Origin: a virus
Taxonomy: Duplodnaviria; Heunggongvirae; Uroviricota; Caudoviricetes
Strand: one strand, 5' to 3'
Virus record (IMG/VR): IMGVR_UViG_2579778613_000007
Span: 1 to 7,958 of that record
Length of the DNA: 7,958 nt
Below the pieces are notes generated by a model. That model did no database searches, was not told the DNA's origin, and saw only the letters and a program-made list of their open reading frames with translations. The translations under genes and the position numbers were made by a program. This document shows, one piece after another, positions 1 through 7,958 of the stretch; the stretch's first letter is position 1, and each line of letters starts with the position of its first letter.

Positions 1-228
1 GAGGGCTTTGCATTCTGCTTCGGTATACGTTTTACCGAGCATAATGTCTTTTCCGGTATGCCCGTAACATACAGTCCATACACCAACGATATCTTTATAT
101 GGTATGTAGCTGACGCCTTCCAGACCATCGTTACCACTTGGTCCAGTGATTAACACAGATGCTATAGCAATAGCCCCGCCACTTATCGCCGCTATTACGC
201 TATTTCGTAGTGCCGGTGACATTGCCAT
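1..228 (-). CDS. R: SAR endolysin (T4-lysozyme-type muramidase), phage 21 R-like; partial, 3' end lies beyond the window start
   Basis: ORF runs off position 1. ATG at 228-226 with GAGG 9 nt upstream (second ATG at 222-220). Translation [76 protein letters not shown]: Gly/Ala-rich signal-anchor-release segment followed by catalytic spacing E-x8-D-x5-T. Start overlaps the holin 3' end, as is usual in lambdoid lysis cassettes. Confidence 0.9.
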
Positions 229-403
229 TCAATCTGTCCTCGCGCTCTTTGCGCTTGTAGTACCAGTTGATGCCAAATGTGCCGACAGTACAAAGAATAC
301 CAATGATGACAGCCCAGTCATTCAGGGAGAGAATGCCACCCATCGCAGTCAGTCCTCCGAAGCTGTAACTGAACCATTCTCTGATTTTGTCCATACGGTA
401 CAT
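200..403 (-). CDS. Class II holin (pinholin-like, two predicted TM segments) with dual-start motif
   Basis: 67-aa [70 protein letters not shown]. Two hydrophobic segments, the first Gly/Ser-rich, and a charged C-terminus. Lies immediately upstream of and overlapping a SAR endolysin. Met1-Tyr-Arg-Met4 resembles holin/antiholin dual starts. SD GAAGGGG 6 nt upstream of Met1. Confidence 0.8.
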
Positions 404-409
404 GCTCTA

Positions 410-425
410 CCCCTTCATTGAGGGG
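410..425 (-). promoter_or_regulatory. Stem-loop sequestering the holin Shine-Dalgarno sequence (possible translational start-selection element)
   Basis: On the mRNA sense strand CCCCT-caatga-AGGGG forms a 5 bp stem whose 3' arm is the SD for holin Met1. Lambda carries an analogous hairpin (CCCCttattGGGGG, from memory) just upstream of S. Confidence 0.35.
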
Positions 426-530
426 ATTTGCTCTATTTAATTAGGAATAAGGTCGATTACTGATAGAACAAATCCAGGCTACTGTGTTTAGTAATCAGAT
501 TTGTTCGTGACCGATATGCACGGGCAAAAC

Positions 531-560
531 GGCAGGAGGTTGTTAGCGCGACCTCCTGCC
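531..560 (-). other. GC-rich perfect hairpin (10 bp stem, 10 nt loop) between tR' and the holin gene; possible attenuator or RNA processing element
   Basis: GGCAGGAGGT-tgttagcgcg-ACCTCCTGCC; on the minus strand it is followed by GTTTTG. I recall a near-identical hairpin at the same place in lambda. Confidence 0.3.
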
Positions 561-855
561 ACCCGCTTTCACGAAGATCATGTGTAGAAGGCAGCAGCGT
601 AACTATCACTGATGAATTCAGGATAGCCAGTGGCTACGGCTCAGTTTGGGTTGTGGCGGCCGGAATCGAACCGGCTTCCATCGGTGCGCTGCCGATTGCA
701 GTACGCGCGGCGGTCAGCTACATGACTAGTATTTTCACTGTCGCCTATCTGCTAGCTCGCCATTGAGCTTCACCACAACGATAAGAGCACTGCGCGGCAC
801 CTTTCACCAATTCCGCGAGGTCTGCGGGTTCAATGCTCTTACCTGTTGCACAGAT

Positions 856-913
856 ATAAAAAATCCCGAAACCGTTATGCAGGCTCTAACTATTACCTGC
901 GAACTGTTTCGGG
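856..913 (-). terminator. tR'-like rho-independent terminator of the late leader transcript
   Basis: Minus-strand stem CCCGAAAC...GTTTCGGG (865-913) containing an inner GCAGG...CCTGC hairpin, followed by ATTTTTTAT. Position is about 194 nt downstream of the inferred pR' start, as in lambda. Confidence 0.7.
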
Positions 914-1050
914 ATTGCATTTTGCAGACCTCTCAGCCTGCGATGGTTGGAGTTCCAGACGATACGTCGAAGTGACCAACTAGGCGGAATCGGTAGTAAG
1001 CGCCGCCTCTTTTTATCTCACTACCACAACGAGCGAATTAACCCATCGTT
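857..1050 (-). ncRNA. Lambda 6S-like late leader RNA (pR' start to tR')
   Basis: Interval between the inferred pR' +1 (plus coordinate 1050) and the tR' U-tract is 194 nt. The sequence is near-identical to what I recall of the lambda pR'-tR' region. No convincing ORF on this strand. Confidence 0.5.
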
Positions 1051-1085
1051 GGGTCAAATTTACCCAACTTTATTCAAAAAGTCAA
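1050..1085 (-). promoter_or_regulatory. Late promoter pR' with overlapping qut (Q-utilisation) region
   Basis: Minus-strand sequence TTGACT - 17 nt - TAAATT - TGACCC - AACGATGGG. The -35 and -10 hexamers have 17 nt spacing, and the -10-like AACGAT at +1..+6 matches the sigma-dependent pause element of lambda pR'. Located 43 nt downstream of the Q stop codon. Confidence 0.7.
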
Positions 1086-1127
1086 TATCATGCCGTTAAT
1101 ATGTTGCCATCCGTGGCAATCATGCTG

Positions 1128-1751
1128 CTAACGTGTGACCGCATTCAAAATGTTGTCTGCGATTGACTCTTCTTTGTGGCATTGCACCACCAGAGCGTCA
1201 TACAGCGGCTTAACAGTGCGTGACCAGGTGGGTTGGGTAAGATTTGGGATTAGCATCGTCACAGCGCGATATGCGGCGCTTGCTGGCATCCTTGAATAGC
1301 CGACACCTTTGCATCTTCCGCACTCTTTCTCAACAACTCTCCCCCACAGCTCTGTTTTGGCAATATCAACCGCACGGCCTGTACCGTGACAATCTCTGCA
1401 TCTTGCGCCCGGCGTCGCGGCACTACGGCAATAATCCGCATAAGCGAATGTTGCGAGCACTTGCAGTACCTTTGCCTTAGTATTTCCTTCAAGCTTTGCC
1501 ACACCACGGTATTTCCCCGATACCTTGTGTGCAAATTGCATCAGATAGTTGATAGCCTTTTGTTTGTCGTTCTGGCTGAGTTCATGCTTACCGCAGAATG
1601 CAGCCATTCCGAATCCGGCTTGTGATTGCGCCATCCCCATAGCAGCCATCACATCAGTACCGGAAAGAGAGTCAGAAGCCGTAGCCCGTGGTGAGTCGCT
1701 CATCATCGGGCTTTTTGGCGAATGAAATTTAGCTACGCTTTCGAGTCTCAT
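1128..1751 (-). CDS. Q: Late-gene antiterminator Q (lambda Q type, zinc-binding)
   Basis: 207-aa ORF MRLESVAKFHSPKSPMMSDSPRATASD...CRDCHGTGRAVD...CGRCKGVGYS...NAVTR with a Cys4 zinc motif; matches lambda Q as I recall it. Followed by pR'/qut. Start overlaps the ninH stop (ATGA). Confidence 0.95.
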   Translation of the reverse strand: MRLESVAKFHSPKSPMMSDSPRATASDSLSGTDVMAAMGMAQSQAGFGMAAFCGKHELSQNDKQKAINYLMQFAHKVSGKYRGVAKLEGNTKAKVLQVLATFAYADYCRSAATPGARCRDCHGTGRAVDIAKTELWGRVVEKECGRCKGVGYSRMPASAAYRAVTMLIPNLTQPTWSRTVKPLYDALVVQCHKEESIADNILNAVTR

Positions 1752-1936
1752 GGCCTTCCCCTTTTGCCCTGTTTGACCATCAGGACGCCGTTAACTATTA
1801 CGTGACGCTCGCCTTTGCTGTCTCGGTTGTACTTGAGCACTGTTCCTCTTGCGCAGGAAAGCATCCTCGCCACTTCGGTCTGATTTCCTCGTGTCTGGAT
1901 AAGAAGCTCTGGTATCGTTTGAATTGTGGCGTTCAT
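1748..1936 (-). CDS. ninH: NinH-like small DNA-binding protein
   Basis: 62-aa ORF MNATIQTIPELLIQTRGNQTEVARMLSCARGTVLKYNRDSKGERHVIVNGVLMVKQGKRGRP. Shares the GNQTEVAR..C.RGTV.KY core with lambda NinH. Sits directly upstream of Q; ATGA overlaps with both neighbours. Confidence 0.8.
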   Translation of the reverse strand: MNATIQTIPELLIQTRGNQTEVARMLSCARGTVLKYNRDSKGERHVIVNGVLMVKQGKRGRP

Positions 1937-2295
1937 GCGTTCTCCAGTTCGGTGATTTTTATTCCAAGCCTTCCGCCTGGTGCTTTCACACCACGAATTA
2001 CGCGAATGTCATCGAATTGCTCGTCGTCTTCCGCAAATCCGGCGTGGATAAGTGAGTCGAGTAAACCTTTCAGGATGTTATCGAGGTCGCGGCGGCGGGA
2101 GTCTGGAACGTCTGCGATTACTTTGATGCGGAGTCGTGATTTGGTGAAAATGTCTAACTTGAGTTGGCGGATGATTTTCTGAACGTCTTTTCGGTATTTC
2201 TGGCCTTTATCGCTGATGTGGTATTGGCTTCCCCGTCTTCGCCAGTAGGTATTCACCGACGGCGGGTATGGAAGCACAAACTGATATTCGTTCAT
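1933..2295 (-). CDS. rusA: RusA-family Holliday junction resolvase
   Basis: 120-aa ORF MNEYQFVLPYPPSVNTYWRRRG...DVPDSRRRDLDNILKGLLDSL...GGRLGIKITELENA with the RusA catalytic acidic motif (RRRDLDN). Strong SD GGAGGG 8 nt upstream of the ATG at 2295. Confidence 0.9.
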   Translation of the reverse strand: MNEYQFVLPYPPSVNTYWRRRGSQYHISDKGQKYRKDVQKIIRQLKLDIFTKSRLRIKVIADVPDSRRRDLDNILKGLLDSLIHAGFAEDDEQFDDIRVIRGVKAPGGRLGIKITELENA

Positions 2296-2708
2296 GGCTT
2301 AATCTTTCCCTCCTTCAGCAGTATCGCCTGGCTGAATACGACAAAGAGTGCGCGGGATTGCCACATCGAGTATCAGCAAGGAGAGAATATCAATCATCGG
2401 AACGCGGCAGAGAACGGTGTAACGCAGCCAAAAAGCGGTTCATTCAGAGCAACCCATGGAAAAGAAAAGCCCACATCATCGTGGGTAATTTTTTGCGCGA
2501 CGGTAAGCTAATCCGACCACCACAATGTGAGTGCTGCGGATCAGAATGTAAACCACAGGCGCACCACTGCGACTACAGCAAACCAACCGATGTGATGTGG
2601 CTCTGCAAGTCATGTCATGTCGAGTGGCACAAACATAACAAACCTATCTACCCAGAAGAGGAACCAGTAACTCTCCCCTTCCCTCGTCACGCTATTCACG
2701 CAATTTAA
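2268..2708 (+). CDS. HNH-like (His-Me finger) nuclease; start codon uncertain
   Basis: C-terminal motif CECCGSECKPQAHHCDYSKPTDVMWLCKSCHVEWHKH fits the HNH pattern CxxCG...HH...WLCxxCHxxxH. The stop TAA overlaps the SD of the next gene. The ATG at 2268 has no good SD and overlaps the rusA start on the opposite strand by 28 nt; the true start may be internal (for example TTG at 2358). Confidence 0.55.
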   Translation: MEAQTDIRSWLNLSLLQQYRLAEYDKECAGLPHRVSARREYQSSERGRERCNAAKKRFIQSNPWKRKAHIIVGNFLRDGKLIRPPQCECCGSECKPQAHHCDYSKPTDVMWLCKSCHVEWHKHNKPIYPEEEPVTLPFPRHAIHAI

Positions 2709-2716
2709 GGACTTAC

Positions 2717-3265
2717 ATGAATCACTTGATGGTTGACCTTGAAACAATGGGCAACGGGCCATACGCGCCAGTTATTTCTATTGGGGCGGTATTCTTTGAC
2801 CCGAATACCGGAGAAACAGGAGAAGAGTTCTCGGTAAATATCTCGCTTGAGTCATCAATGCGATATCGGGCGCGTCCTGACGCTTCAACGATTTTATGGT
2901 GGATGGAACAGAGTGAAGAAGCCAGAAAATCGCTAACCAGCAACACTCAGGAGCTTTCAACGGCTCTTTCATGGTTATCTGAATTCATCATAAAGAACGC
3001 TAACCACAAATTCGTTCAGGTTTGGGGGAATGGAGCATCATTTGACTGCGTTATTCTCCGAAACAGTTATTCGCTGACAGGGCAGCCAGTTCCGTGGCAG
3101 TGGTGGAATGACCGCGATGTAAGAACAATCGTCGAGCTTGGAAAGGTAATAGGATTCGACCCTAAGCGAGATATGCCATTCAAAGGAACTCGTCACAACG
3201 CGCTTGATGATGCCATCCACCAAGCCAAATACGTTTCAGCAATCTGGAAAAAATTAGCTAAATAA
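2717..3265 (+). CDS. DnaQ-like DEDDh 3'-5' exonuclease
   Basis: 182-aa ORF with all three exonuclease motifs: Exo I MVDLETMG (D, E), Exo II VWGNGASFD (D), Exo III HNALDDAIHQ (H, D). SD AAGGA 5 nt upstream of the ATG. Confidence 0.8.
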   Translation: MNHLMVDLETMGNGPYAPVISIGAVFFDPNTGETGEEFSVNISLESSMRYRARPDASTILWWMEQSEEARKSLTSNTQELSTALSWLSEFIIKNANHKFVQVWGNGASFDCVILRNSYSLTGQPVPWQWWNDRDVRTIVELGKVIGFDPKRDMPFKGTRHNALDDAIHQAKYVSAIWKKLAK

Positions 3266-3281
3266 TCAACAGGAGAAAATC

Positions 3282-3575
3282 ATGCCAGCGCCTCTGTATG
3301 GTGCGGATGACCCGCGCCGCTGTTCCGGCAATTCCGTATCGGAGGTGCTGGCTAAATTCAGAAAAAACTACGACCTGATAATGTCGCTACCGCAGGAAAC
3401 GAAAGAGGAAAAGGAATTTCGCCATTGTATATGGCTTGCAGAGAAAGAAGAACGCGAGCGAATTTACCAGACATCAATCCGACCATTCCGCAAAGCCACA
3501 TATACCCACTTCCCTGAAATTGACCCGCGCCTGCGTAATTACCGCTCACGCTATGGCGCTATCAGTAATGACTGA
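3282..3575 (+). CDS. Hypothetical protein (97 aa)
   Basis: ATG at 3282 preceded by AGGAG; co-oriented, 16 nt after the exonuclease stop. No recognisable domain. Confidence 0.6.
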
Positions 3576-3585
3576 GGAATTTACC

Positions 3586-3753
3586 ATGAGAGGACTTGCA
3601 TACAATCCCGGCATTCTTCAGGCAGAAATGATTATTCGCCAACGCGTAAAGCCAATGCCATCGAGAGAGGAATTGCTTAAGAGAAAGAGTTTCGGTTCTG
3701 TTAATGACAACAAATATCTGAATGCGATGTGGCGCAAAGGAGGCAACCAGTGA
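3586..3753 (+). CDS. Hypothetical small protein (55 aa)
   Basis: ATG at 3586 with GAGG 8 nt upstream. The longer ORF from 3436 in the track overlaps the previous gene in another frame and is less likely. Ends in the repeated motif AGGAGGCAACCAGTGA. Confidence 0.5.
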
Positions 3754-3804
3754 GTAATTCAGCACGACTACAGCTTGGTTTTTCACCGCTATCAAAAAAC
3801 TATC

Positions 3805-4005
3805 ATGCTGGCAAAAATGCGCGATGTTGAAGGTGGGCGTATGCGCGTTGGCAATGATCCAGGTCGTGATGTTACCAATGAGGATGCTCAATTGGTGTGG
3901 CAACTGGTCATGGCTGAAGGTGGTGAGATCGCGTGGGAGCTGGATGATGGTTCTCGCATGGTGTTGAAGGCAGAAAAACAGGAGGCAACCAGTGAACAAG
4001 ATTGA
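3805..4005 (+). CDS. Hypothetical small protein; start uncertain (ORF open from TTG at 3775, first ATG at 3805, no clear SD)
   Basis: Open frame ...MLAKMRDVEGGRMRVGNDPGRDVTNEDAQLVWQLVMAEGGEIAWELDDGSRMVLKAEKQEATSEQD. Its 3' end overlaps the start of the next gene by 14 nt. It may be the downstream part of a frameshifted gene. Confidence 0.4.
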   Translation: MLAKMRDVEGGRMRVGNDPGRDVTNEDAQLVWQLVMAEGGEIAWELDDGSRMVLKAEKQEATSEQD

Positions 4006-4486
4006 CTATCAGGCACTGCGTGAGGCGGCAGAGCGTGCAATTCAGGCAATGGAACGCCTGTTAATGTTGCCAGTTGATGATGATCTGATAAGCGAACAGG
4101 AACTTAAAGATTTCGGTGTGGATATTGATGCGCTCAACGCCTTCAAATTTCTGGCCGGACCAGAAACCGTGCTGGCACTACTTGATGAACGGGAAGCAGA
4201 CAAAAAGCGCATTGCAGAACTGGAAGCTCGGGAAATAAAACCAGCCAAAGGTGAAGTTCTTGTCGTTGTTTCTGGTTTTACTGGTTGCGGAAAAAGCGCC
4301 ATTGCCGGGGAAATAGAAATCGCGATGAAGGCTATTGGTGTACCGGTTCAGTGGACTAATGGCGATGCGGAAAAGCGCATGACAGGAGCTGACTGGCTGA
4401 CAGCGATTGAGATGTACAAACCAACTGTGCGCATCGTGGAAGTTAATGTGCCACGCGTCGCTGGAATTCGCATCAAAGGAGAGTGA
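3992..4486 (+). CDS. Ead/Ea22-like early-region protein
   Basis: GTG start with AGGAGG 6 nt upstream. The N-terminal YQALREAAERA and central TVLALLDERE motifs match what I recall of Ead/Ea22-like prophage proteins. The C-terminal part carries a Walker-A-like GFTGCGKS. Confidence 0.6.
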   Translation: MNKIDYQALREAAERAIQAMERLLMLPVDDDLISEQELKDFGVDIDALNAFKFLAGPETVLALLDEREADKKRIAELEAREIKPAKGEVLVVVSGFTGCGKSAIAGEIEIAMKAIGVPVQWTNGDAEKRMTGADWLTAIEMYKPTVRIVEVNVPRVAGIRIKGE

Positions 4487-4487
4487 T

Positions 4488-4685
4488 ATGGATAAAAACA
4501 CCACTGCCTACTGGAGTCTGTCACTTGATACCGAATGTCCCAAATGTGGTCACAATTTCGATCTGCTTTGTGATCCAGATTTCTGGGAGTTTTCTGGAGC
4601 TAAACAGGCATGTGAAGAAATAAAAGGTTACGAAACATGCTGTCCAGAATGTAACCATGAATTTAAAACAGATTTCGTGTATTGA
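4488..4685 (+). CDS. Small zinc-ribbon protein (65 aa)
   Basis: MDKNTTAYWSLSLDTECPKCGHNFDLLCDPDFWEFSGAKQACEEIKGYETCCPECNHEFKTDFVY with two Cys pairs (CPKC ... CPEC). The ATG lies 1 nt after the upstream TGA within the repeated module AAAGGAGAGTGATATG. Confidence 0.6.
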   Translation: MDKNTTAYWSLSLDTECPKCGHNFDLLCDPDFWEFSGAKQACEEIKGYETCCPECNHEFKTDFVY

Positions 4686-4695
4686 GGCATAACAA

Positions 4696-4812
4696 ATGAC
4701 CACTATTACCAAAGAATGGCTACAGAAAACGATTACCAGCATTGAGTCAGCACGGGATGAAATGCCGTTCGGACTCGATGAAGATCAAAGCAACATGCTT
4801 ACCGCAATTTAA
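4696..4812 (+). CDS. Short ORF (38 aa), possibly the N-terminal remnant of a frameshifted gene
   Basis: ATGACCACTATTACC... (MTTITKEWLQKTITSIESARDEMPFGLDEDQSNMLTAI). Its first 11 nt are identical to the start of the DUF551-like gene at 4979, and the N-terminus resembles MTTIIDKK...LNELITNIEFAAR. Confidence 0.3.
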   Translation: MTTITKEWLQKTITSIESARDEMPFGLDEDQSNMLTAI

Positions 4813-4978
4813 AATTGCACTGGCATCACTGGAAGCAAAACCAATAGGTGCTTTCCACATTGCAGAACAGCAAGTTGACGGCACAAGTGACTATCTCAAG
4901 GATGGAGAATGGCCTATTGATAATGGGATTATTGAAGTCTACACCGCGCCGCCATGCTTCAGGGTAAAGGAGAGTGAT

Positions 4979-5542
4979 ATGACCACTATAATCGATAAGA
5001 AACAGTATCCAGGCGAGCAATATCTTAATGAGCTGATCACCAACATAGAGTTTGCTGCAAGGGCACCAGTTGAAGTCGTGAGAGCAATGGCAGCAGAGCT
5101 ACAGAAGCGGCGCGAAGCTGATAGTGCCGAACCTGCAAGTAATCATGAAGAGTTGCCACTTGATTATCTCCAAGGTCAAAAAGATGGTCTTGAATGGGCT
5201 GCGCAGCTTGCAGAAGCAAATCACCCACAAACTGGCGACTGGCTTTACGATGACCCGCTGGAGCTGGCTAAAGCTATCAGAAAAGGTCCTGACATGCCCG
5301 AATTCGATGGACCAGCTCCGGTAACTCCGGATGGCTGGATAAGCTGTAGTGAGCGAATGCCAGATGATGGTCAGCACGTAATTATTTTATGTGATGGCGC
5401 ATTCGTTCTTTATGCGCAATATCGAGACAGTGAGTTTTTTGATGTTGTCCGCAATGGTGAGGAGTTCTTCGAAACGCAGAGCCGCAATGTAACCCACTGG
5501 ATGCCGCTACCGGAACCGCCGCAGGAGGCTGACAATGGCTAA
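4979..5542 (+). CDS. DUF551-like phage protein; the same frame is open upstream to 4757/4742, so an N-terminally extended form is possible
   Basis: C-terminal PDGWISCSERMPDDGQHVIIL...NVTHWMPLPEPP is the pattern I associate with DUF551. The ATG at 4979 is preceded by AAAGGAGAGTGAT, the same RBS module as at 4475-4490. Confidence 0.65.
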   Translation: MTTIIDKKQYPGEQYLNELITNIEFAARAPVEVVRAMAAELQKRREADSAEPASNHEELPLDYLQGQKDGLEWAAQLAEANHPQTGDWLYDDPLELAKAIRKGPDMPEFDGPAPVTPDGWISCSERMPDDGQHVIILCDGAFVLYAQYRDSEFFDVVRNGEEFFETQSRNVTHWMPLPEPPQEADNG

Positions 5543-5819
5543 TCTGCAACTGGCAGTGAACGGCGAATACTTCGACCAGATGAAGCGGGGCGAGAAAACG
5601 GAAGAGTATCGCCTGTGTAATGACTACTGGAATAAGCGAATTATGTTCCGGGAGTATGACCGCCTGATTATCACAAAGGGATATCCGAAGCGCGACGATT
5701 CCAGTCGCAGAATTGATGTTCCGTATGGTGGATATGAAATCAAGACAATCACACATCCGCACTTCGGCGATAAACCGGTAAAGGTGTTCGCGATAAAGGT
5801 GAATATCGGCAATGAATAA
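5535..5819 (+). CDS. ASCH/PUA-like small protein (94 aa)
   Basis: MANLQLAVNGEYFDQMKRGEKTEEYRL... The G-x-K-T-x-E-x-R signature near the N-terminus and the size fit an ASCH-type fold. AGGAGG 6 nt upstream of the ATG; overlaps the DUF551-like gene stop by 8 nt. Confidence 0.5.
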   Translation: MANLQLAVNGEYFDQMKRGEKTEEYRLCNDYWNKRIMFREYDRLIITKGYPKRDDSSRRIDVPYGGYEIKTITHPHFGDKPVKVFAIKVNIGNE

Positions 5820-5822
5820 CAT

Positions 5823-5847
5823 CCTCGCACTCGCGGGGATTTCTTTT
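5823..5847 (+). terminator. Rho-independent terminator (first of a tandem pair)
   Basis: Stem CCTCGC-actc-GCGGGG (one G-U pair) followed by ATTTCTTTT, 4 nt after the ASCH-like stop codon. Confidence 0.55.
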
Positions 5848-5852
5848 ATCTG

Positions 5853-5877
5853 AACTCGCTACGGCGAGTTTTGTTTT
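5853..5877 (+). terminator. Rho-independent terminator (second of a tandem pair)
   Basis: Stem AACTCGC-tacg-GCGAGTT followed by TTGTTTT. Confidence 0.6.
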
Positions 5878-5890
5878 ATGGAGACAAGAA

Positions 5891-6235
5891 ATGTCAGATT
5901 TGGCTATGAAGATTTTGAAATGGCAATCGACTGGCGATGTCGGCATCAGTAGCGCAACTCTTGCCTCAATCGCATGTGGACTGAAAAAGAATATCTATGG
6001 TCATCACTTCGGCGCTCCACATGATGCAGCCGATTTCCGGCGATGCGTTGCACTTGTTGAGCAGATTCCAGAAATCAGAGATTCATTCGACAAGGTTGCA
6101 AAGCGCGTTCCGGCATTCAAAGGAATCCTCAACGAATGGGATTCACTCGTTGCTCTGTTGAAGTCTGAAATGAAGACGTACGGGAACAAAGCACCAGAGA
6201 CTTACAGAAGAATCAGCGAGCTACGCAAGGACTAA
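5891..6235 (+). CDS. Hypothetical protein (114 aa), moron-like gene flanked by terminators
   Basis: ATG at 5891 with GGAG 7 nt upstream. Product MSDLAMKILKWQSTGDVGISSATLASIACGLKKNIYGHHFGAPHDAADFRRCVALVEQIPEIRD... has no domain I recognise. Terminators lie on both sides. Confidence 0.6.
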   Translation: MSDLAMKILKWQSTGDVGISSATLASIACGLKKNIYGHHFGAPHDAADFRRCVALVEQIPEIRDSFDKVAKRVPAFKGILNEWDSLVALLKSEMKTYGNKAPETYRRISELRKD

Positions 6236-6292
6236 CCCGCCTCACACTCGATGAGGCATTTTCATTTATCAAGATATCCAGACCTACCATCG

Positions 6293-6313
6293 CCGCATCA
6301 ATGCGGTTTTTTT
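6293..6313 (+). terminator. Rho-independent terminator
   Basis: Stem CCGCA-tcaa-TGCGG followed by TTTTTTT, 58 nt after the stop of the 114-aa gene. Confidence 0.65.
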
Positions 6314-6358
6314 ATTGCCTGATTTGCAGGTTCGATTCCCTATTCGGAGATAGCACTC

Positions 6359-6559
6359 ATGCAACACGAACTACAACCTGATTCACTGGTTGATTTGAAA
6401 TTCATCATGGCCGATACTGGCTTCGGTAAAACCTTCATCTACGACCGGATTAAGTCCGGCGACCTGCCAAAAGCCAAAGTTATCCACGGACGAGCAAGAT
6501 GGTTATATCGTGACCATTGTGAGTTCAAAAATAAGCTCTTAAGTCGCGCCAATGGGTAA
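6359..6559 (+). CDS. AlpA/Xis-family excisionase-like DNA-binding protein
   Basis: 66-aa ORF MQHELQPDSLVDLKFIMADTGFGKTFIYDRIKSGDLPKAKVIHGRARWLYRDHCEF... Shows the AlpA-type winged-helix pattern (I..TG.GKT.IY..I..G..P...VI.GRA.W). GGAG 9 nt upstream of the ATG. Confidence 0.8.
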   Translation: MQHELQPDSLVDLKFIMADTGFGKTFIYDRIKSGDLPKAKVIHGRARWLYRDHCEFKNKLLSRANG

Positions 6560-6609
6560 AATAGCGGGTAAAATATTTTTCACATATAAAAAATACCATT
6601 CCAATCAAT

Positions 6610-6641
6610 CCCCTGCCGCTTCAAGTAGATGTCTGCAGGGG
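6610..6641. repeat. Inverted repeat CCCCTGC - 18 nt - GCAGGGG in the ORF-free tract
   Basis: Perfect 7 bp inverted repeat, preceded by an AT-rich stretch (6572-6598). Function unknown. Confidence 0.3.
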
Positions 6642-7035
6642 ACACCAGATACCCTTCAAACGAAATCTACCTTCACCCCGTAAAAGATGGGTTTGGCAGC
6701 ACACTTGCCTTATATCTACTCATTTTTACTGCAACAGGTTGAAATCTCAGCACTGTCAGAAAGCGCTGATGACTAAACAGCCCTGGGCCGGGCGATGTAA
6801 CCATCACACAGAATCCTGATAGCGAAATATGGCGTGACTCGATACTTCACTCCGCAATGCATTCCTTGATGAATTCGCAGGACCGTGATACACGGGACAG
6901 GTCACTGAATGACGACAATGTCCTGGAAATCAGCGAACCGCGCATCTGAAGTACATTTGAGCGACTGTACCAGAACATGAATGAGGCGTTTGGATTAGGC
7001 GATTATTAGCAGGGCTAAGCATTTTACTATTATTA

Positions 7036-7079
7036 TTTTCCGGTTGAGGGATATAGAGCTATCGACAACAACCGGAAAA
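7036..7079. repeat. Inverted repeat TTTTCCGGTTG - 22 nt - CAACCGGAAAA immediately 3' of the permease gene; possible bidirectional terminator or boundary hairpin
   Basis: Perfect 11 bp inverted repeat 10 nt downstream of the permease stop (7089-7091 on the minus strand). A/T tracts lie inside the stem rather than after it, so it is not a classical intrinsic terminator. Confidence 0.35.
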
Positions 7080-7088
7080 AGTTTACGT

Positions 7089-7958
7089 CTATATTGCTGA
7101 AGGTACAGGCGTTTCCATAACTATTTGCTCGCGTTTTTTACTCAAGAAGAAAATGCCAAATAGCAACATCAGGCAGACAATACCCGAAATTGCGAAGAAA
7201 ACTGTCTGGTAGCCTGCGTGGTCAAAGAGTATCCCAGTCGGCGTTGAAAGCAGCACAATCCCAAGCGAACTGGCAATTTGAAAACCAATCAGAAAGATCG
7301 TCGACGACAGGCGCTTATCAAAATTTGCCACGCTGTATTTGAAGACGGATATGACACAAAGTGGAACCTCAATAGCATGTAACAGCTTCACTAATGAAAT
7401 AATCCAGGGGTTAACGAACAGCGCGCAGGAAAGGATACGCAACGCCATAATCACAACACCGATAAGTAATGCATTTTTTGGCCCTACCCGATTCACAAAG
7501 AAAGGAATAATCGCCATGCATAGCGCTTCGAGTACCACCTGGAATGAGTTGAGATAACCATACAGGCGCGTTCCTACATCGTGTGATTCGAATAAACCTG
7601 CATAAAAGACAGGAAAAAGTTGTTGATCAAAAATGTTATAGAAAGACCACGTCCCCACAATAAATATGACGAAAACCCAGAAGTTTCGATCCTTGAAAAC
7701 TGCGATAAAATCCTCTTTTTTTACCCCTCCCGCATCCGCCGCTACGCACTGGTGATCCTTATCTTTAAAACACATGTTGATCATCATAAATACAGCGCCA
7801 AATAGCGAGACCAACCAGAAGTTGATATGGGGACTGATACTAAAAAATATGCCGGCAAAGAACGCGCCAATAGCATAGCCAAAAGATCCCCAGGCGCGCG
7901 CTGTTCCATATTCGAAATGAAAATTTCGCGCCATTTTTTCGGTGAAGCTGTCAAGCAA
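7089..7958 (-). CDS. LacY-family oligosaccharide:H+ symporter (MFS), possibly a CscB-like sucrose permease; partial, 5' end beyond the window end
   Basis: The 289-aa C-terminal portion aligns by eye with LacY: EKMARNFHFEYGTARAWG vs EKVSRRSNFEFGRARMFG, DQQLFPVFY vs DQQFANFF, PKNALLIGVVIMALRI vs GKNALLLAGTIMSVRI, LHAIEVP vs LHMFEVP (LacY H322/E325 region). Multiple hydrophobic TM segments. AT-rich codon usage unlike the phage part. Confidence 0.9.
   Translation of the reverse strand: MLDSFTEKMARNFHFEYGTARAWGSFGYAIGAFFAGIFFSISPHINFWLVSLFGAVFMMINMCFKDKDHQCVAADAGGVKKEDFIAVFKDRNFWVFVIFIVGTWSFYNIFDQQLFPVFYAGLFESHDVGTRLYGYLNSFQVVLEALCMAIIPFFVNRVGPKNALLIGVVIMALRILSCALFVNPWIISLVKLLHAIEVPLCVISVFKYSVANFDKRLSSTIFLIGFQIASSLGIVLLSTPTGILFDHAGYQTVFFAISGIVCLMLLFGIFFLSKKREQIVMETPVPSAI

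Follow-up and report, generated by a model that had tools for sequence, protein, structure and literature searches.

A candidate dual-start holin/antiholin gene behind a Shine-Dalgarno-masking hairpin in a lambdoid late operon

The subject of this study is a small lysis gene near one end of a stretch of 7,958 nucleotides (nt) of viral DNA (Caudoviricetes; IMG/VR record IMGVR_UViG_2579778613_000007, positions 1 to 7,958), which as a whole is referred to below as the window. The gene lies on the minus strand and encodes a holin of 67 amino acids (aa), and directly 5' of it is a stem-loop that includes the Shine-Dalgarno (SD) sequence of its first start codon. A sequence-only reading, made without database searches, had proposed that the gene carries a Met1-Tyr-Arg-Met4 dual start of the holin/antiholin type, that the hairpin is selected as a structure for the control of lysis timing, and that the holin works as a pinholin with a signal-arrest-release (SAR) endolysin. 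Everything this reading stated about the sequence itself turned out to be correct, and its interpretation finds computational support, which we set out here together with the points that count against it.

The holin gene, its two start codons and the upstream hairpin

The elements at the 5' end of the gene are as follows.

403..200, minus strand: holin open reading frame (ORF) of 67 aa, beginning MYRMDK, taken from the ORF list
403-401, minus strand: ATG1 (Met1), read from the sequence, predicted start of a 67-aa antiholin
397-395, minus strand: Arg3 codon CGT, giving an extra positive charge in the long form only
394-392, minus strand: ATG4 (Met4), second in-frame start, predicted to yield a 64-aa effector holin
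425..410 (nt -22..-7), minus strand: SD hairpin of the sdi-like kind, 5 base pairs (bp), from the minimum-free-energy structure
425-421, minus strand: 5' arm of the hairpin, CCCCU, read from the sequence
420-415, minus strand: hairpin loop, CAAUGA, read from the sequence
414-410 (nt -11..-7), minus strand: 3' arm of the hairpin, AGGGG, which is the SD of Met1, read from the sequence
409..404, minus strand: spacer UAGAGC from the hairpin to AUG1, read from the sequence

The 67-aa protein matches the Pfam family PF16080 (Phage_holin_2_3, the HP1 holin family) with 75.1 bits against a cut-off of 28.8 bits (E = 4.4e-21), the match covering residues 5-53 and profile positions 1-49 of 56, and it also matches PHROG 20 'holin' (phrog_20). 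Hydropathy analysis gives two hydrophobic segments, rather than three or none, at residues 11-27 (Kyte-Doolittle value 1.13) and 30-48 (1.78), the second strongly hydrophobic, followed by a basic tail, an arrangement also seen in S21. An AlphaFold2 model built on a 30-sequence alignment places helices at 3-22 and 27-58 with a modest mean predicted local distance difference test score (68), and a search of solved structures with the holin returned nothing meaningful. The protein is small, with two predicted transmembrane segments and a charged, basic-rich C-terminal tail, and by these sequence features it is a class II holin, for which an N-in/C-in orientation would be expected. The first transmembrane domain (TMD1, residues 11-27) is weakly hydrophobic and 53% Gly/Ala/Ser/Thr, compared with 60% for TMD1 of the phage 21 holin S21, and the loop between the two domains comprises two residues (N28-D29). 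The score against PF04971 (Phage_holin_2_1, the phage 21 holin S family) falls below threshold, at 19.5 versus 26 bits, and BLASTP against S21 gives no significant match (E = 0.27). Judged by sequence, the window holin would be S21-like in its working while lying outside the S21 family. Many Salmonella P22-like phages and Escherichia coli prophages carry a near-identical protein (97-100%) behind the same leader, for example BTP1 s, ST104 gp13, Emek hol, gene 13 of PS34 and PS119, and SPN9CC. Records of the P22-like phages label this protein merely 'holin' or 'class II holin'. The holin of phage L/ST64T, considered as a member of the same type, was ruled out: it is of a different type, with an amber mutation in the Gln50 codon.

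The first four codons read M1-Y-R3-M4, with the basic residue confined to the longer product. All 30 homologues compared retain Met4, and those that have Met1 also have Arg3 without exception. Among 39 genomic relatives, counted as loci from distinct species, 35 carry the motif M-(x)-[R/K]-M, that is M-x-[R/K]-M or M-R-M, so that the proposed dual start is both present in the window and widely kept. The basic position is R or K in all 38 motif-carrying loci, genomic and reference together, and is spelled by five codons (CGC, CGT, CGA, AGA and AAA), with codon 2 unconstrained (Tyr, Gln, His, Thr, Ala or Lys). Since codon 3 stays basic through five codons and codon 2 is free, codons 1-3 appear to have been selected as protein and hence to be translated. 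The wider family looks different: in 140 representatives of 50%-identity clusters, 129 are without the extension as annotated and 11 have it, and most of the distant members inspected start M-[D/E]-K at the position equivalent to Met4. Because these relatives begin there, the 64-aa form is plausible as a product by itself; with HP1 Hol, too, reported to be without a dual start (PMC7312051), it probably corresponds to the ancestral holin, whereas the Met-x-Arg extension looks like a derived add-on of the enterobacterial lambdoid branch. A late N-terminal addition is the pattern expected of an antiholin made by N-terminal extension.

The mRNA upstream of the gene reads ...AAAU CCCCU CAAUGA AGGGG UAGAGC AUG UAC CGU AUG. 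When the 5' untranslated region was folded, the hairpin emerged as the minimum-free-energy structure of the 61-nt context, with the SD of Met1 forming the 3' arm of the 5-bp stem (CCCCT/AGGGG in the DNA) exactly as the sequence-only reading had described. The isolated hairpin has a free energy of -7.5 kcal/mol, and the pairing probability of the SD core in the window is 0.999. As in an sdi-type element, the SD of the upstream start lies within the 3' arm of a stem-loop directly 5' of the gene. The GAG in the spacer (407-405), 10 nt 5' of AUG4, may act as a weak SD for Met4, by analogy with the UAAG of lambda. The 61-nt fold also contains a small, weak hairpin across AUG1 and AUG4.

A further AUG within the hairpin loop (418-416, minus strand) is in frame with the holin and opens a mini-ORF, AUG AAG GGG UAG (418-407), which stops 3 nt short of AUG1. 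One viral contig (L047) has UGG in place of the UAG, and its holin would thereby be lengthened to MKGWSMYRM.... The mini-ORF itself lacks conservation, the loops of BTP1-type copies reading CAAUAA.

A mosaic joint within the hairpin, and hairpins in relatives

The sequence upstream of the loop belongs to a longer element.

655..421, minus strand: lambda-type late-operon leader, ending on the last base of the hairpin 5' arm

This leader is identical to lambda 44936-45170 at 228 of 235 positions (97.0%, no gaps), and identity falls to about 50% over the next 80 nt beyond 421. With lambda, HK97, HK022 and similar phages, every Megablast alignment ends at window position 421. Since the lambda match ends at this base, the mosaic boundary lies exactly between the 5' arm and the loop. 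In lambda, where the sequence is AAAUCCCC UUAUU GGGGGU AAGAC AUG AAG AUG, the same CCCC arm pairs with GGGGG in a 6-bp hairpin of -8.7 kcal/mol; the lambda-like sequence does end at the hairpin, and the arms are complementary in both phages with a different loop, as had been claimed. The CCCC(U) arm derives from the lambda leader, the loop, the SD arm and the gene form part of the holin module, and the window and lambda hairpins share their 5' arm by descent. The -1..-10 segment of the window (GGGGU-AGAGC) is nearer to the leaders of non-lambda relatives (GAGGUGAGAGC) than to that of lambda (GGGGUAAGAC), which argues that the SD arm travels with the holin. Opposite a CACC-CCG 5' arm the SD arm reads GGAGGUG, and opposite the CCCCU of lambda it reads AGGGG, a pattern that would be consistent with the SD having been adjusted to keep pairing after module exchange. 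Among near-identical viral and reference copies, variants of the hairpin are confined to the loop (CAAUAA and CUAUGA) or add a G that lengthens the stem.

Relatives that are 50-82% identical in the holin lie behind leaders unrelated to that of lambda, and there the SD is again found in the 3' arm of a hairpin. The relatives' hairpins are listed below, the last being behind a diverged lambda-like leader.

CACC-CCGA / UCGG-A-GGUG: Citrobacter and Atlantibacter
CACC-CGC / GCG-A-GGUG: Raoultella and Citrobacter
CGCC-A-UCCGA / UCGGA-GGUG: 89-aa sister group, in Kluyvera, Citrobacter, Klebsiella and Phytobacter
CUCCG / CGGAG: a further type
Yersinia and Sodalis types: further hairpins
CCCCG / UGGGG: Entomohabitans, diverged lambda-like leader

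These hairpins differ little in stability, all lying between -7.4 and -12 kcal/mol, a range that includes the sdi of lambda (-8.7) and the S21 hairpin (-10.9). In place of shuffle tests, an empirical background of SD-bearing starts was used for comparison, namely 169 other SD-bearing ORF starts in the same loci, with an SD core of 4-5 nt. In all 36 non-redundant dual-start leaders analysed, which are of several unrelated sequence types and include lambda S and relatives with hairpins like that of phage 21, the SD core pairs with upstream bases with a probability of 0.60-1.0. The control starts have a median of 0.25 (n = 169), and 7% of them reach 0.8. The difference gives a Mann-Whitney p of about 7e-18, a value that is overstated because the leaders are related, although the direction of the difference is clear.

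The sister holins (loci L089-L122) are 84-92 aa long and come from prophages of Kluyvera, Citrobacter, Klebsiella, Phytobacter and Pectobacterium. They have the same C-terminal half and an M-T-R-M dual start, with an insertion of about 22 aa between the hydrophobic regions, and a relative matches PF16080 as well as PF04971. The hairpin in the leaders of this group (CGCC-A-UCCGN...NCGGA-GGUG) is similar to the one that precedes S21 in phage 21.

The arrangement in the window can be set beside four known systems, of which the dual-start precedents, lambda S107/S105 and S21-71/S21-68, have been reviewed (PMC9636201). In lambda S, the GGGGG SD at -12..-7 serves Met1, the antiholin start, and UAAG at -6..-3 serves Met3; an upstream stem-loop at -21..-7 controls the access of ribosomes to GGGGG, a downstream intragenic stem-loop contributes as well, and together these elements give a 1:2 ratio of starts in favour of the holin (bioRxiv 10.1101/2025.05.14.654169). 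The window hairpin (-22..-7), G-run (-11..-7) and UAGAG (-6..-2) match the first three of these elements by position. Both genes are the first of the late operon behind the same leader, with two AUGs split by a basic residue, a weak second SD-like element between hairpin and AUG1, and hairpins of similar stability (-8.7 kcal/mol in lambda, -7.5 in the window). Lambda S differs in being a class I holin of unrelated sequence that has three TMDs, makes a large hole and is paired with the cytoplasmic endolysin R; its motif is M-K-M rather than M-Y-R-M, and its loop UUAUU rather than CAAUGA.

S21 shares with the window holin class II organization with two TMDs, an M-x-x-M start (MKSM against MYRM) followed by D-K, a weakly hydrophobic Gly/Ala/Ser-rich TMD1, an endolysin about 89-90% identical, and an SD (GGAGG) buried in a hairpin, which we folded at -10.9 kcal/mol. 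The record of phage 21 annotates both S21-71 and S21-68. S21 differs in that BLASTP detects no homology between the two holins, the leaders and hairpins are unlike in sequence, its basic residue is at position 2 (3 in the window) and its periplasmic loop has about seven residues (two in the window). HP1 Hol belongs to the same family, PF16080, as the window holin, and hol likewise overlaps the downstream SAR endolysin gene. It is 78 aa long, and the dual start and SD hairpin belong to the enterobacterial lambdoid branch. In experiments HP1 Hol, whose partner is a SAR endolysin, was lethal to E. coli while beta-galactosidase stayed inside the cells, which is the behaviour of a pinholin (PMC7312051). 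The Salmonella P22-like copies have the same leader, hairpin and overlapping endolysin as the window, differing slightly by loop variants and the extra G that lengthens the stem.

A proposed lysis mechanism and its alternatives

The holin is flanked in the window by the following genes and signals of the late operon.

228..1, minus strand: SAR endolysin (PF00959), N-terminal 76 codons, cut by the window end
1751..1128, minus strand: Q antiterminator (PF03589, E = 6e-58)
1085..1057, minus strand: pR'-like late promoter TTGACT-17-TAAATT, found by promoter scan and near-identical to lambda at the same place

The gene belongs to the late lysis cassette of a lambdoid prophage, in which Q and pR' are followed by a leader of about 650 nt, the holin and an overlapping lysozyme. 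With Q upstream, the holin comes first among the late-operon genes, and its leader is presumably transcribed from the pR'-like promoter. The ATG of the endolysin (228-226) overlaps the last 29 nt of the holin gene in another frame. The N-terminus of the endolysin is 89% identical to that of phage 21 R21 over 74 aligned aa, including the SAR segment, matches the structures PDB 3hde and 4zpu (E = 1e-40) and has its hydrophobic peak at residues 11-27; the full-length orthologue of BTP1 is 90% identical to R21. In all 39 genomic relatives, the gene after the holin encodes a lysozyme whose N-terminus carries a hydrophobic anchor. The 29-nt overlap, seen also at loci L084-L122, is conserved in the 67-aa holins and in the differently built 89-aa sister group (MTRMSTIYSRLSYG...). 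The tail codons of the holin, GAGGAC, supply the SD of the endolysin, which starts with two ATGs (Met-Ala-Met; M-A-M-S...).

Taking these results together, we consider it likely that the gene encodes a dual-start class II holin/antiholin pair whose ratio is set by the hairpin, acting in pinholin-type lysis with the SAR endolysin. Late transcripts from pR' would carry the leader, in which the hairpin would partly mask the SD of Met1, so that most initiation would take place at Met4 to give the 64-aa holin and a minority at Met1 to give the 67-aa form. The charge of Arg3 in the long form would hold the N-terminus and TMD1 and slow the topological change. By analogy with lambda S107 and S21-71, the long form may act as an antiholin until the membrane depolarises, and the ratio of holin to antiholin would set the time of triggering. 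The SAR endolysin would be exported without the holin, and depolarisation would free and activate the tethered enzyme. Because an R21-type endolysin is exported without the holin, the holin need only depolarise the membrane, as a pinholin does. The pinholin part of the sequence-only reading draws support from membership of the HP1 family with its pinholin prototype, from the composition of TMD1, which would fit a SAR-like segment able to leave the membrane, and from the R21-like endolysin; small holes would be predicted by analogy with the HP1 prototype and S21, for which lesions of about 2 nm that depolarise the membrane and pass no proteins are known.

Several observations weigh against this reading, and some of those that concern the hairpin favour the main alternative, in which the hairpin is a passenger: CCCC is simply the end of the lambda leader, any G-rich SD would pair with it, the pairing regulates nothing in this gene, and SD spacing alone determines the ratio of starts, should there be two. 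The 5-bp stem is weak and does not stand out from shuffled sequences. For the 61-nt context the z score is -1.61, with an equally good fold in 13 of 200 shuffles; for the 141-nt context z is -0.15, and shuffling confined to the upstream sequence gave no enrichment of SD pairing (fraction 0.68). A competing 13-bp stem (424-436/463-475) can take two C's of the 5' arm. That arm came with a leader that is 97% conserved, and its own conservation therefore carries no information, and the SD arm is constrained anyway by SD function. No covariation is seen within the lineage that carries this cassette. Since the hairpin alone is unremarkable and covariation is absent in this lineage, the case has to rest on the more distant relatives. 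The 36 dual-start leaders are not phylogenetically independent and represent perhaps four to five independent types. Covariation counted on a MAFFT alignment of 26 related leaders is likewise weak: two-sided change is confined to a single pair, and a score as high as the observed one arises in 19 of 500 shuffles, although the divergent leaders, with shifted registers and bulges, are misaligned in this test, which therefore understates them. In the sister-group leaders, the loop is hypervariable and the stems are kept. Two sequences have U-A in place of A-U at the closing pair, and one pair is found both as G.U and as A-U. The proposal that selection acts on the structure stands in so far as the unrelated leaders all sequester the SD, and lacks formal strength in that covariation is weak, so that the support is indirect. 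Against a passenger hairpin, relatives behind unrelated leaders bury the SD with different arms, comparable pairing is reached by few other SD-bearing starts (the 7% given above), and the equivalent stem-loop of lambda is reported to control SD access (bioRxiv 10.1101/2025.05.14.654169). We therefore regard it as unlikely that the hairpin is a mere passenger. That the inverted repeat serves instead as a terminator for antisense transcription on the plus strand was suggested by a pattern scan, which flags 410-425 (plus strand) as terminator-like. This we find extremely improbable: no credible plus-strand gene enters it (ORF 146..421 on that strand is antisense to the holin and was rejected as a gene), its T-tract is poor (ATTTGCTCTA), the two terminator-like sites found are no more than shuffling leads one to expect (1.1 +/- 1.1), and the same element lies in the late mRNA of lambda.

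The remaining points concern the starts and the hole. The GGGG run is separated from AUG4 by 15 nt, and Met4 would have to depend on the weak GAG 10 nt upstream. HP1 Hol, the prototype of the family, has neither a dual-start motif nor a known antiholin, and on overexpression it is reported with an unusual C-out topology (PMC7312051); given this prototype, the S21 mechanism is transferred to the window holin by analogy only. The poor SD spacing, the HP1 precedent (PMC7312051) and the single starts annotated in most of the distant relatives would all fit a gene with one functional start, Met1 or Met4, and no antiholin. If Met4 alone were used, an upstream Arg or Lys would not be expected to persist through five codons, and use of Met1 alone would not explain why Met4 never varies or why most relatives have their only start at that position; S21, moreover, has the same M-x-x-M layout, with both products annotated in phage 21. 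A single functional start is in our estimation very unlikely. A less remote alternative keeps the dual start and the hairpin as proposed and makes the protein a class II holin that opens large holes. Hole size is unreadable from sequence, and SAR endolysins also occur with other, non-pinholin types of holin, which bears equally on the pinholin assignment itself. The two-residue loop between TMD1 and TMD2 is unlike that of S21, to which, as described above, the protein has no significant similarity by BLASTP (E = 0.27) or by profile (PF04971, 19.5 versus 26 bits). On the other hand, TMD1 resembles that of S21 in its weak hydrophobicity and its content of small residues, all 39 relatives are paired with membrane-anchored lysozymes, and the HP1 prototype leaked no beta-galactosidase (PMC7312051). 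Large holes thus seem to us rather unlikely, and the small-hole, dual-start pair remains the reading we prefer.

The leader contains further stems. Two are mutually exclusive (424-436/463-475 versus 466-474/498-506, minus strand), and another lies at 531-540/551-560 (minus strand). The 13-nt stem (92% complementary) adjoins the SD hairpin, and a perfect 9-nt stem shares one arm with it. In the diverged leader of Entomohabitans (L105), the 13-nt stem is apparently kept by compensation, TCTAT/ATAGA having become TTCAT/ATGAA. It is possible that the alternating stems form a conformational switch that acts on the sdi, the upstream stems taking or releasing two C's of the 5' arm and so tuning the strength of the hairpin; through such a switch the antiholin:holin ratio and the timing of lysis would depend on conditions. 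We know of no description of a leader-stem switch of this kind. The more elaborate proposal, in which the module joint lies in the loop, the two arms stem from different modules and each incoming holin adjusts its SD to re-pair with the resident CCCC arm, as GGAGGUG behind other leaders and AGGGGU in the window would reflect, with the upstream stem switch tuning the hairpin, is speculative, and we think it quite unlikely to hold as a whole.

Neighbouring features and wider meaning

The leader is lambda-like on both flanks, in the pR'/6S region (about 1130-830) and at 655-421, and the intervening segment (830-656, minus strand) is unlike lambda and contains a tRNA remnant. This tRNA-like sequence, at 648-706 (minus strand), comprises the T-arm and the 3' half of the acceptor ending in CCA. 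ARAGORN identified no tRNA, and the Rfam search gave only a sub-threshold match to the tmRNA/tRNA clan at 648-706 (20 bits); Rfam has no family matching the leader or the hairpin. BTP1 and phage 21 have intact tRNA-Asn and tRNA-Thr genes at the same site, between Q and the holin. Among the complete E. coli genomes of the collection, matches in a single place cover at most 87% of window positions 1-1300, so this particular mosaic is uncommon. At the far end of the window, an ORF at 7958-7089 (minus strand) is cut by the window end; its product, as we take it, resembles the E. coli sucrose permease CscB, which would place the prophage beside the csc locus. A small AlpA-like ORF lies at 6359-6559 (plus strand), and no integrase is visible between it and the ORF at 7089-7958.

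The control device described here is already known from lambda S, P22 13 and S21, and the window gene is a new example of it; the current understanding of phage lysis is unchanged by this finding. To our knowledge, a dual start combined with an SD-masking stem-loop has been worked out experimentally in only two cases, lambda S in class I and S21 in class II. In the literature that could be searched, no paper was found that tests or describes the starts or the hairpin of this holin, PMC11657625 dealing with an unrelated phage, although older reviews may list the motif. The window gene extends the dual-start/SD-hairpin design to a third, unrelated holin family (HP1/PF16080). The sharp joint between arm and loop illustrates that an exchange of coding modules need not destroy a regulatory RNA structure. 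The gene is common, occurring in Salmonella P22-like phages, including BTP1 of the epidemic ST313 lineage, and in E. coli prophages, and for this reason a simple set of alleles could test how general the timing model established for lambda and S21 is.

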